DNA from: an uncultured Acidobacteriota bacterium
GTDB taxonomy: Bacteria; Acidobacteriota; Vicinamibacteria; Fen-336
Assembly: GCA_963720545.1 (NCBI GenBank)
Contig: OY970399.1
Location: 3,872,001 to 3,936,000 of the forward strand
Direction of reading: 5' to 3'
Length of the DNA stretch: 64,000 nucleotides
The notes under the pieces are model-generated. The model searched no databases and had not been told where the DNA came from. It was given only the letters and a program-made list of their open reading frames with translations. Positions 50,865 to 53,262 of the stretch are shown here, one piece after another. Both the position numbers and the translations under genes were made by a program. The first letter of the stretch is position 1, and every line of letters begins with the position of its first letter.

Positions 50865-51926
50865 CTACTTCTCGTACATCGCGGCAATCAGGGCCCCGCG
50901 CGCGGTGGCGGTGAGGGGATCCTTGGCGAGACGCACGCCGGCGATCTCGATGGGCAGCGGCCTGGCCTTCATGGTGCGCTCGAACAGCTCCTTGAAGCCC
51001 TTGGCCTTGGCGGTGCCGCCGGAAAGCACGATCGGCAGCGGCCGGTCGGTGCGCGGCAGCTTGTCGGTCGCGGCCAGCGACTTGCGCAGCGAGTCGACCA
51101 GCGCGTCGACCAGATCCTCGTAGTAGATGTTGAGGGCCTTCTCGATCTTGTCCTTGCCGGGACGGCCGAGGTCGAGCCCCTCTTCCTTCGCCATCTTCAC
51201 CCGCGTCGCCGACTCGGCAACCACCGCACCCACCGAGGCGTCGATCGAATCGCCGCCCTTCTGGAGGCTGTACATGATGGCCGGGATCGACAGGAAGGCG
51301 AGGGCGACGTTGCACATGCCACCGCCGCAGGAGATGCCGATGCCGCTGAAGTTGTTGTCCTCGAGTTCGCTGAAGACGACTGCCAGGCCCTCGTTGACCG
51401 CAACCGCGCGGTAACCGAGGCCGTCGAAGTACTTGCGCAGCGTGGCCTCGTGGTAGGTGAGCTCGCTCTCACGGCCGTCGGGCGCCGCGGGCACCGAGAA
51501 CGCCAGCACGTCGCCCTGGCCCTTGGCCTTCGGCACCACGTTCTGCACGATCACGTCGAGCACCTGCATCGCCGACTTCTCGCGCGCGTTCAGCAGGCCG
51601 AAGGCCATGGGCCGGCGGCTCTCCGCGCCGAACATGTTGGCGAACTTGTCGGTGGCGTCGCCGTAGACGACGATCTCCTCGCCGTCGCGGTAGTAGGGAA
51701 TGTTCTGCTGGCCGAGGATCGTCTCGGTGAAGCGCGAATACGGCACCTGGATGAACGCGTTCAATTGCGCCACCGTCTCGACCCCGTTGCCGCGCTTGCG
51801 GGCGGCGACGATGCGGCTCGTTCCGACATCGACGCCTTGGGGACTGCTACCCTTCTGGGCTTCCTCGTTCATCCGCTCCTCCGCATCGGGTTGCACCTTC
51901 CACAACTGATCCTTGCGTTCTTCCAT
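50865..51926 (-). CDS. Actin-like ATPase, volactin-like
   Basis: Phosphate-1 GVDVGT, NEGLAV, phosphate-2 GISCGGG, adenosine IVLSGGT, TARGA. Confidence 0.85.
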   Translation of the reverse strand: [353 protein letters not shown]

Positions 51927-51936
51927 TATCTAGGGC

Positions 51937-53262
51937 CTAGCCTCCGCTGGCGACGTCAACCTCGTCCTTCCGGGCCGAGACTTCCTGCGCTCCGGCCTTC
52001 GTCTGCTCCAGAATCCACCGGTCGTACATCGCGCGCTTGCGCAGGCGCAGCGCCTCGATGCTCTCGCCCGTCTGGCGGGCTTCCGCGACCAGCGCCTGCT
52101 CGGCGCTCGCGACGCCCGGCCACGGCTCGCCCTGCATCTTCGCCAGGAACTCGTCGTCGTAGTGGAAGCCGAACTCCAGCACCGCCGGCGACGGCACGTC
52201 GTAGGCGTTCGGCAGGCCGAACGCGCCGAACGGAAAGCCGCGCGCCCAGTCGACGTGGTGGCCGATGAGGTGCTCACGCGAGTTGACGCTCGTCAGGCCG
52301 TGCGTGACGCACATCTGCGGCGCGATCTCGTAGCGCAAGCGCAGATGCTCCGTGAGAGCGAGTCCCGATGCAAGCTGGGCCTGGGTGATGGGCAGCGCGC
52401 GCCCGCCCTCCCAGCGCGTCTCGAAGCACACGCCGATGAAGGCGCTGTTGAGGTTGAGGAAAGTGGTGTCGCCGTCCTTCCACACGGAAAAGCCCGCGTG
52501 GTTGGCGCGGCCGTTCTCCTCGACGATGCGGTAGACGCGGCCGAAGCGGTCGATGACGTAGTTGTAGAGCCGGCGCCTGGCGATGTACTTCATCAGGCCG
52601 TGCGAGCTCTTCTTGAGGTTGTCGTTGAACGATTCCTCGAGCGGCCAGATGTCGCTTTCCGAGGTGTGAAACAGGATGCCGACAGGCCTGGTGTAGGTCT
52701 CGCGCTGCATCCCGGTGCGGCGGAACACGCGGTATCGGCGCTCGGGGCCGGCCACGGCGAAATTGGTCTCGATGCGCAGGCCGTTGCTGTACTGCTCGAA
52801 GTTCGCGCCGCGCTCCACCAGCCAGATGCTCTTCGGCGCGGGCGCGGACGAGGCCGGCATCGGTTCGGCGACAGGATCGAGACGCGGCGCGCCTGCCAGC
52901 ACGGGCGCCGCGGCGCGGGCCGCGCGCGCGTCGCGCGTGCTCCAGCGGGCCGCCGCGAACAAGGAAGCCGCGAGCAGCGCGCCGACCACGGCGAAGCCGA
53001 GCCAGGCGGGACGGTGCCGCTTCGTCTTCCTGGCGACCGCGCGGCTCAGGCTGGAGTGGCCGAGCAACGGATCCACCGAGTCGTAGCCGAGCATGCGCTG
53101 CGCCATGCGGTGCACGCCGGGGATGGGGATGAGGCGCAGCAGGCGGTCGGTGCGGCGGTAGCGGGAGATCGACCCGCGCAGGTGGCGCAGCTTGGCCACC
53201 GGATCGGCAATGACCTCGGTTTCGCGCTCGAGCGCGCGCAGCAGCGGCTCGCCTGTGTTCAC
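51937..53262 (-). CDS. Membrane-anchored N-acetylmuramoyl-L-alanine amidase (Amidase_2/PGRP fold)
   Basis: TM helix at ~aa 86-105; ILFHTSE, YNYVIDRFG, ANHAG, IGVCFE, VTHG; RBS AGGAG. Confidence 0.85.
   Translation of the reverse strand: MNTGEPLLRALERETEVIADPVAKLRHLRGSISRYRRTDRLLRLIPIPGVHRMAQRMLGYDSVDPLLGHSSLSRAVARKTKRHRPAWLGFAVVGALLAASLFAAARWSTRDARAARAAAPVLAGAPRLDPVAEPMPASSAPAPKSIWLVERGANFEQYSNGLRIETNFAVAGPERRYRVFRRTGMQRETYTRPVGILFHTSESDIWPLEESFNDNLKKSSHGLMKYIARRRLYNYVIDRFGRVYRIVEENGRANHAGFSVWKDGDTTFLNLNSAFIGVCFETRWEGGRALPITQAQLASGLALTEHLRLRYEIAPQMCVTHGLTSVNSREHLIGHHVDWARGFPFGAFGLPNAYDVPSPAVLEFGFHYDDEFLAKMQGEPWPGVASAEQALVAEARQTGESIEALRLRKRAMYDRWILEQTKAGAQEVSARKDEVDVASGG

Follow-up and report, generated by a model that had tools for sequence, protein, structure and literature searches.

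The stretch of DNA considered here (the window) comprises 64,000 nucleotides, bases 3872001-3936000 of a single-contig genome of 4.09 Mb, and its proteins have their closest relatives among sequences labelled Vicinamibacteria (phylum Acidobacteriota). On its reverse strand lie two adjacent genes, the first for a peptidoglycan amidase predicted to span the membrane once and the second for an actin-like ATPase of the Volactin family (Table 1). The TAG stop codon of the amidase gene is separated by 10 bases from the ATG of the actin gene; a preliminary description, made from the letters of this DNA alone, had reported a 353-amino-acid (aa) actin-fold protein encoded 10 bp behind an Amidase_2 gene, and both the list of open reading frames (ORFs) and the stop-to-start spacing agree with it. 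The sequence AGGAG stands directly 5' of the amidase GTG, and a sigma-70-like promoter candidate lies upstream as a match to the consensus only, with two sites found in the region versus 0.3 expected from shuffled sequences.

Judged by profile matching, the window actin belongs to the Volactin family as Pfam defines it. The Volactin profile (PF25216) matches residues 30-349 over profile positions 3-321 of 321 (E 6.4e-80; 269.5 bits, cut-off 35), and of 14 control genomes one scored above the cut-off and four, Haloferax volcanii included, gave any signal. The Pfam profile Salactin (23.7 bits, cut-off 27.1) and the NCBIfam models for MamK (33.7 bits) and salactin (27.3 bits), both with cut-offs of 400, remained below threshold, and no FtsA or ParM family of Pfam or NCBIfam matched at E <=0.01. 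On the MreB profile (MreB_Mbl of Pfam, cut-off 27) the protein obtains 16.9 bits, whereas the canonical MreB that the genome encodes elsewhere reaches 497 bits; a separate FtsA-like gene is also present and served as a tree outgroup. These scores, together with the trees described below, bear out the earlier suggestion that the protein resembles volactin more than MreB, FtsA, ParM or MamK, and all five motifs then quoted for it do occur in the 353-aa translation.

The predicted structure is that of an actin. An AlphaFold model based on 45 homologues has a predicted local distance difference test (pLDDT) score of 88.4 and a predicted template-modelling (TM) score of 0.86, with disorder limited to residues 1-25, and the top Foldseek matches of this model are MreB, MamK (TM-score 0.68/0.73) and BeeR (0.69). 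Actins, actin-related proteins, FtsA, crenactin and EutJ follow among the 50 matches listed, and the fold matches include the structures of MreB with RodZ (2wus) and of FtsA with residues 1-29 of FtsN (7q6i). A PDB sequence search with the actin alone returned nothing at E <=0.01, and the 45-sequence profile gave weak matches to MamK (1.7e-4), EutJ and MreB. Within the 45-sequence alignment, the nucleotide-binding motifs are unchanged at D33, G35 and T36 (phosphate-1), at G201-G203 (phosphate-2) and at G303-G304 (adenosine). The N-terminal extension is disordered, its acidic, low-complexity character is seen in all three lineages that carry the pair, and in Vicinamibacteria and gammaproteobacteria it begins M-[ED]-[ED]-R-[KNT]-D; no amphipathic membrane-binding helix was seen in this extension, nor any membrane-binding segment of the protein's own, and Pfam detected no DNA-binding domain in the window actin.

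The partner gene encodes an enzyme whose residues 219-321 match Amidase_2 in Pfam (E 9.8e-15; 55.5 bits, cut-off 26). Its best sequence matches among solved structures are AmpDh2 of Pseudomonas aeruginosa (4bj4, E 2.2e-5) and AmiD of Escherichia coli (2bh7, E 8e-4), and Foldseek, run on an AlphaFold model with an overall pLDDT of 84.5, listed AmpD first, followed by AmpDh2 and AmiD (E 1e-6 to 3e-5) and several endolysins. Eight residues (H199, T200, E202, H255, E281, H321, H336 and D338) are unchanged across an alignment of 45 amidases, consisting of the window sequence and those of 44 of the 72 linked loci introduced below, picked for having both genes complete. E281 aligns with the glutamate of 'GIE' and H321 with the histidine of 'VVAH' in AmiD (2bh7); following AmpD and AmiD, we take H199, H321 and D338 to be putative zinc ligands and E281 to be the putative catalytic base, with H199 and D338 placed by motif and not by alignment. 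By domain score, predicted fold and putative catalytic residues, the enzyme classes as an Amidase_2 protein of the AmiD/AmpDh2 type. As far as we know, AmiD and AmpDh2 are lipoproteins without a cytoplasmic tail, whereas the window amidase is predicted to have a type II membrane topology, a conserved tail and additional helices at its C-terminus (382-438).

The membrane topology of the amidase rests on several observations that agree with one another. Its lone hydrophobic segment (residues 86-104; Kyte-Doolittle maximum 2.07) falls within a model helix of residues 84-118, and these two features define a segment of ~85 aa ahead of one membrane helix, as originally described. Lysine and arginine residues within 15 positions of the membrane segment average 4.0 on the N-terminal side versus 2.0 on the C-terminal side among the 45 homologues, with the N-terminal side richer in 38 of them, equal in four and poorer in three; by the positive-inside rule the tail is therefore predicted to be cytoplasmic and the enzyme extracytoplasmic, in keeping with the orientation first proposed for the catalytic domain. 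The tail itself bears the motif I-x-D-P-x-x-K-L-R-x-L-R near residues 19-30 (R-P-E-x-R-L-R-F-L-N in Blastocatellia), a tyrosine at position 55 and a basic cluster beside the membrane helix. Matches to a hidden Markov model (HMM) of the tail are confined to these amidases, in that they were found in 66 ORFs of the loci and, when the entire genome was translated in six frames, at one site.

An extracytoplasmic enzyme bears on the proposition that the 353-aa protein is not cytoskeletal, being instead an enzyme or chaperone of the ASKHA fold, for instance a sugar kinase that recycles muropeptides with an AmpD-like amidase. AmpD-type amidases and ASKHA-fold kinases do cooperate in peptidoglycan recycling, AmpD is the top Foldseek match of the amidase domain, and EutJ is found among the weaker matches of the actin. 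However, recycling takes place in the cytoplasm and the amidase domain is by topology outside the membrane, no kinase was matched in Pfam or NCBIfam, and no sugar kinase appears among the 50 listed Foldseek matches, all of which makes this explanation very improbable.

The pairing of the two genes is conserved far beyond the window. A scan of one genome per species yielded 255 stretches with actin relatives, the best 80 of which were kept; these loci stem from Vicinamibacteria, Blastocatellia and the gammaproteobacterial Steroidobacteraceae/Lysobacterales, and cultured carriers include Steroidobacter flavus, S. agaridevorans, S. gossypii, Peristeroidobacter soli and P. agariperforans. An amidase homologue lies immediately upstream of the actin gene on the same strand in 72 of the 80 loci, and in 70 of these 72 the amidase stop codon falls between 56 nt inside and 196 nt before the first aligned actin codon. 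The eight remaining loci comprise three with less than 400 bp of upstream DNA (L030, L045 and L097) and five (L059, L064, L067, L070 and L087) in which the actin is fused to an HU domain and no amidase lies within 8 kb. Whole genomes were examined for two of these five, and each contains a full-length amidase with the tail motif, 49 kb away in one and on another contig in the other.

Presence and absence follow the same pattern. In the window's order, PF25216 and the amidase profile were matched in an identical set of 39 out of 41 genomes, the other two (63% and 84% complete) having neither, and in an even sample of 201 Acidobacteriota genomes (amidase profile threshold E <=1e-20) PF25216 gave 14 matches at E <=0.001, eight above the cut-off and five above 250 bits, while the amidase profile was found in four genomes, all among the five >250-bit actin carriers and adjoining the actin each time; these counts are not independent trials because the genomes are related to one another. 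In the order of Steroidobacter flavus, the actin was present in two of 61 sampled genomes. Across phyla the distribution of the pair is thus scattered, while within one order nearly every genome has it, and the two genes are inherited together; the neighbourhood survey upholds the expectation that the amidase linkage would recur in other genomes. When genes of these neighbourhoods were clustered, components 2, 3 and 6 proved to be false, consisting of antisense shadow ORFs in high-GC DNA, and component 4 (sigma-54 response regulators) was set aside as a common family.

Such a distribution is hard to reconcile with the pair being the remnant of a phage or plasmid cassette made up of an endolysin and a segregation actin. 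Amidase_2 is a common endolysin fold, several endolysins occur among the Foldseek matches, and Volactin-family proteins are present in two uncultured megaphage records (36% and 30% identity). However, the pair is near-universal (39 of 41 genomes) and single-copy in the window's order, where its place on the chromosome is conserved and the same GNAT and ATPase genes recur beside it. No bacterial plasmid was hit among 72,556 plasmid records and only two hits arose among 50,697 phage records, no phage genes were found among the examined neighbours, and a conserved cytoplasmic tail of 85 residues is not an endolysin feature. We regard a cassette origin as the least probable of the explanations considered, to the point of being barely credible.

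The Volactin family is large, with 3276 proteins at E <=1e-5 among 8000 candidates and 335 representatives at E <=1e-30 in a library clustered at 50% identity, and it also has planctomycete and phage members. A protein of a Halogeometricum borinquense megaplasmid (P0308), which scores 436 bits on the Pfam Volactin profile and is 36% identical to the window actin over 325 aa (E 9e-77), represents the haloarchaeal side of both trees that were built. The first, a FastTree analysis of 216 rows (250 collected, minus 36 whose best domain covered <270 profile positions, plus the genome's own MreB and FtsA-like proteins, with its DnaK-like protein omitted), unites the amidase-linked and HU-fused sequences in one clade of 34 rows (starred support of 97), joins Vicinamibacteria with gammaproteobacteria (96, starred), nests the HU forms in the Blastocatellia branch (98, starred) and places P0308 in a separate clade of eight rows (99, starred). 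The second, an IQ-TREE analysis of 66 hand-picked rows under a mixture model with a quick search, recovers an amidase-linked clade of 25 rows with an unstarred support of 87, and P0308 falls inside a group of 26 rows with planctomycete sequences (100, starred). Both trees set the window actin apart from the genome's own MreB and FtsA-like proteins; their root is unreliable because the branch of the MreB outgroup is very long. On these grounds the window actin appears to represent a separate bacterial subfamily and not an orthologue of Haloferax volactin.

Records of mobile elements extend this picture. The five plasmid matches are all haloarchaeal megaplasmids. On the Halogeometricum borinquense megaplasmid pHBOR01 (locus L098, 234431-247429), the Volactin-family gene is annotated as 'cell division protein FtsA'; it follows a gene for a protein with four transmembrane (TM) helices and an acidic C-terminal region and lies ~3 kb from two cell-shape genes, an SMC-related gene and rdfA. 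The two phage carriers are uncultured megaphages of 485 and 595 kb, and their Volactin-family proteins, encoded at LR745208.1:337417-338442 and LR756511.1:548798-549790, are 36% and 30% identical to the window actin. One planctomycete protein bears the NCBI name 'disk-shape morphogenesis protein volactin', and Pfam domains are precomputed on bacterial members; bacterial membership of the family is therefore not itself new. The preliminary description had presented a bacterial volactin-type filament that positions a wall hydrolase as a new context for the family, of which the family match and the amidase partner stand, whereas the protein is apparently no haloarchaeal orthologue and bacterial members were already in the databases.

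With volactin itself (VolA, HVO_2015), the window actin shares the same Pfam family over its full length, the actin fold and intact nucleotide motifs. It differs in belonging to a bacterial clade and in having a peptidoglycan amidase as its partner, and to our knowledge haloarchaea have no peptidoglycan. A further likeness lies in gene order, as the gene again stands behind that of a membrane protein, which has four TM helices in Halogeometricum pHBOR01 and, according to the available part of the source, is a CdpA-like four-TM protein whose gene adjoins volA in H. volcanii (PMC12126565). Haloferax volactin polymerises in vivo, with filament tips that touch the membrane; the role in disk shape and the filament dynamics have, in the available text, been shown for Haloferax VolA only (PMC10869688).

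Variant forms of the actin show what else the family may be joined to. In one Blastocatellia-type branch, an HU/Bac_DNA_binding domain is fused to the N-terminus of the actin (E 5.8e-18 in L059; also in L090, L095 and P0122), and the amidases paired with HU-fused actins have tails scoring 25-39 bits on the tail HMM, versus 55-106 bits for the others. At 18 Blastocatellia-type loci, a gene for a protein with a Zn-ribbon, a TM segment and a SPOR domain (SPOR E 4e-15) lies directly upstream of the amidase gene, and actins of a sister clade (P0133, P0134, P0144 and P0151) carry the same Zn_ribbon_4 domain as a fusion. SPOR domains bind glycan that has been denuded by amidases. The window genome's own SPOR protein is of another type than the Zn-ribbon protein that adjoins the pair in Blastocatellia. 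Other Volactin clades are fused to Zn-ribbon, response-regulator, ParB-HTH (P0162, P0170 and P0182), PRC and Wzz/GNVR/ParA domains.

Fusions to DNA-binding domains bring up the alternative that the filament mainly tethers or moves the nucleoid or some other cargo, in which case the amidase would serve as a membrane and wall anchor whose PGRP-like domain grips peptidoglycan, and the system would stand closer to ParM/ParR or salactin than to MreB. The HU-fused actins belong to the same clade and in L090 and L095 the fused form still lies behind an amidase, the ParB-HTH fusions occur in other Volactin clades, and salactin, a haloarchaeal actin, aids DNA partitioning, as the available portions of two reports state (PMC10869688; PMC10746226). 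However, the HU fusion is limited to one sub-branch and the window actin has no DNA-binding domain. The putative catalytic residues are all unchanged in the 45 amidases, which argues for an active enzyme over a mere anchor, and the SPOR protein encoded next to the pair in Blastocatellia suggests that denuded glycan is a product. We therefore consider the cargo explanation unlikely.

Several further architectures were noted within the family. Inteins split seven Volactin proteins of 684-799 aa (P0172, P0186, P0240, P0241, P0245, P0257 and P0270), combining Intein_splicing with HNH or LAGLIDADG and sitting close to the glycine motif of phosphate-2, at roughly positions 170-200 of the profile. 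Two tandem Volactin domains are present in P0123 and P0149 (729-750 aa). In P0185 (1160 aa) the Volactin domain is N-terminal and is combined with Wzz, GNVR and ParA-like domains, an arrangement like that of a polysaccharide co-polymerase or tyrosine kinase. An apparent amidase-actin fusion (P0147) was rejected as an artefact, its amidase part being out of frame mid-way. Genome G228 (L099:1922-9908) carries a different Volactin-family gene (381 aa, 256 bits) next to FeoB, in a cluster with a response regulator bearing a long coiled coil, two more actin-like ORFs (one of them MreB-like_C) and a ParA/MinD-like ATPase.

For the amidase-actin pair, we propose a two-gene bacterial module of a cytoskeletal protein and a wall hydrolase. 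The amidase would hold its basic, helical tail of ~85 residues in the cytoplasm, cross the membrane with one helix and present its catalytic domain to the periplasm, where it would cut stem peptides off the glycan strands of peptidoglycan. The actin would polymerise in the cytoplasm and dock onto the amidase tail, and the position and dynamics of the filament would set where, and perhaps when, the periplasmic enzyme acts. On balance, and with modest confidence, we favour the view that an actin filament is coupled in this way, via the conserved tail of the bitopic amidase, to wall cleavage outside the membrane. The analysis itself establishes the family assignments, the predicted fold and topology, intact catalytic and ATP motifs, operon-like spacing and strict co-inheritance, with apparent transfer of the pair from one phylum to another; we infer that the actin polymerises, that its filament binds the tail and positions the enzyme, and which process in the cell this serves. 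Since the genome also has MreB, two Amidase_3 genes, another Amidase_2 gene and a SPOR protein, the module would be an addition to the canonical MreB and AmiC-type machinery, used to remodel the wall locally or to separate cells.

Comparison with established systems makes this proposal more concrete. The closest match in design appears to be the BacA-LmdC module, a bicistronic arrangement conserved across phyla and described, in the available text, from Hyphomonas neptunium and Rhodospirillum rubrum, in which the bitopic M23 peptidase LmdC binds the bactofilin through its cytoplasmic N-terminal region, with a dissociation constant of ~15 µM (PMC10945521). Both systems consist of adjacent, co-conserved genes, and in both the hydrolase (by prediction in the window) has its N-terminal region in the cytoplasm, crosses the membrane once and exposes its catalytic domain to the periplasm. 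They differ in that the polymer here is putatively an actin homologue that binds ATP, where a bactofilin needs no nucleotide, in that an Amidase_2 protein takes the place of the M23 peptidase, and in that the tail, a putative binder, is predicted to be helical and is ~85 residues long, whereas that of LmdC is a short beta-hairpin. The pair would, by this analogy, work like a BacA-LmdC module without being a member of that class. With MreB-RodZ and FtsA-FtsN, it would share the principle of a bacterial actin that is tied to the envelope by a bitopic partner, via the cytoplasmic N-terminus of that partner. RodZ and FtsN are, as far as we know, not enzymes, and the window actin differs from MreB and FtsA in having no amphipathic membrane-binding helix. 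The concept of an actin homologue that governs the site of action of a wall hydrolase is shared with MreBH-LytE of Bacillus subtilis. LytE, however, is as far as we know a secreted DL-endopeptidase with neither membrane anchor nor cytoplasmic tail, and its gene is not in an operon with mreBH.

Much of the same evidence could be read as an ATP-driven switch, in which the actin would turn the amidase on and off through the membrane helix and would not position it, conceptually like FtsEX acting on amidase activators. In its favour are the intact ATP site, the tight control that wall hydrolases generally require, and the same co-inheritance and operon evidence as for the filament-positioning proposal. 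What speaks against a switch is that the closest structural relatives (MreB, MamK, BeeR and actin) all form filaments, that a single membrane helix followed by a disordered linker of ~30 residues (119-146) is a poor allosteric conduit, and that the founding member of the family makes filaments in vivo, as the available text reports (PMC10869688). We accordingly attach a low probability to the switch.

Several observations weigh against the filament-positioning proposal. No Pfam family covers the tail and no usable ESM Atlas match was obtained for residues 1-110, and confidence in the tail model is moderate (pLDDT 60-83). Adjacency of the pair is not obligatory, because five loci with HU-fused actins have no amidase within 8 kb, and the fifth strong actin carrier of the Acidobacteriota sample, G228, has a protein of another Volactin subfamily and no such amidase. 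The HU fusion hints at a DNA-related role of the filament. Any transfer of properties from Haloferax spans 36% identity, because the window actin lies outside the haloarchaeal clade. Lastly, the genome has its own MreB, FtsA-like protein and other amidases, and the module is thus not needed for textbook functions.

A broader reading would combine the filament-positioning proposal with the HU forms. An independent bacterial cytoskeleton would bridge wall and cell interior, with filaments anchored at a wall-cutting amidase and, in the HU forms, also bound to the nucleoid, such that chromosome position and wall splitting would be mechanically coupled in a segregation-and-separation device unrelated to MreB, FtsZ and ParABS, and the two genes would have moved together between Acidobacteriota and Gammaproteobacteria. 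This reading is speculative, and we hold it to be rather doubtful.

Downstream of the pair lie two genes for STAND/AAA-type ATPases (Table 1). The first (gene 3) starts 35 bp past the actin stop codon and is frame-shifted in the assembly between 48949 and 48904, its intact orthologue at locus L024 having 828 aa; the second (gene 4) is frame-shifted near 47734-47753 at a run of five C, with an intact L024 orthologue of 394 aa. These frame breaks could be assembly indels or could mark real pseudogenes. The two genes accompany the pair in Vicinamibacteria only, where they stand on either side and in either orientation, and for this reason they were kept out of the core module. The other neighbours examined with Pfam over 44126-59696 are an S8 peptidase, a divergent GNAT acetyltransferase, a TPR protein, an unassigned ORF of 194 aa, RecG and a cytidylyltransferase-like protein; no mreC/D, ftsZ, parR or pilNOP genes are among them, just as the preliminary description had stated. 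Beyond both ATPase genes, on the same strand, positions 44126-47224 encode a protein of 1032 aa in which a signal peptide and a C-terminal outer-membrane beta-barrel are combined with subtilase S8, PPC and Ig-like (HYDIN/ASH) domains. At the start of the window, positions 1-6000 have a G+C content of 0.565-0.587, versus about 0.66-0.74 across the rest.

Table 1. Coordinates of the amidase-actin locus, of the parts of the amidase, and of variant loci. Coordinates without a prefix are positions in the window; residues are those of the amidase.
Feature	Position	Strand	Basis or remarks
Amidase gene, bitopic peptidoglycan amidase (predicted)	51937..53262	-	ORF of 441 aa, GTG start; Pfam Amidase_2
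Volactin-family actin-like ATPase gene	50865..51926	-	ORF of 353 aa, ATG start; Pfam Volactin
Sigma-70-like promoter candidate 5' of amidase gene	53291..53320	-	TTGCCG-18-TATAAT, 10/12 matches
Tail, codons 1-85, conserved basic four-helix, cytoplasmic (predicted)	53008..53262	-	Alignment, AlphaFold
Four tail helices	residues 6-15, 21-42, 48-63, 71-82		AlphaFold, pLDDT 60-83
Single transmembrane helix, codons 86-106 (predicted)	52945..53007	-	Hydropathy, model helix
Long helix	residues 84-118		AlphaFold; contains hydrophobic segment 86-104
Disordered linker, ~30 residues	residues 119-146		AlphaFold
Extracytoplasmic Amidase_2 catalytic domain, codons 147-380 (predicted)	52123..52824	-	pLDDT >90, conserved columns
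Two C-terminal helices	residues 382-438		AlphaFold
Gene 3: signal peptide, TPR repeats, membrane helix, STAND/AAA-type ATPase	48371..50829	-	Pfam, frame comparison
Gene 4: soluble STAND/AAA-type ATPase	47316..48417	-	Pfam, frame comparison
HU-fused actins	L059:7557-8969, L064:7626-8969, L067:7647-8969, L070:4257-5603, L087:7743-9014
HU-fused actins with amidase upstream	L090:5160-6563, L095:5249-6622
Zn-ribbon/TM/SPOR gene (example)	L084:4909-6285

A full-text literature search found no published description of the amidase-actin pair and no paper naming PF25216. The available text of the volactin study holds no treatment of bacterial homologues (PMC10869688), and the volactin literature is, as far as seen in the parts available, either haloarchaeal or a passing mention.

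How bacteria confine potentially lethal wall hydrolases to the right sites is a long-standing question with few worked examples, namely MreB, FtsEX and bactofilins. In the pair described here, an actin from a family so far investigated in halophilic archaea alone, which have no peptidoglycan, is tied through inheritance to a wall amidase in abundant soil bacteria, and the occurrence of the pair in cultured strains of Steroidobacter and Peristeroidobacter makes it directly testable. If the link between tail and filament is true, the module would constitute a fourth chromosomal actin system in bacteria and a new, inside-out route of hydrolase control, and the combination of an actin with an adjacent membrane anchor would be suggested as an old and general trait of the Volactin family. 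The pair thereby points to an undescribed way in which bacteria may steer the cleavage of their wall from the cell interior.

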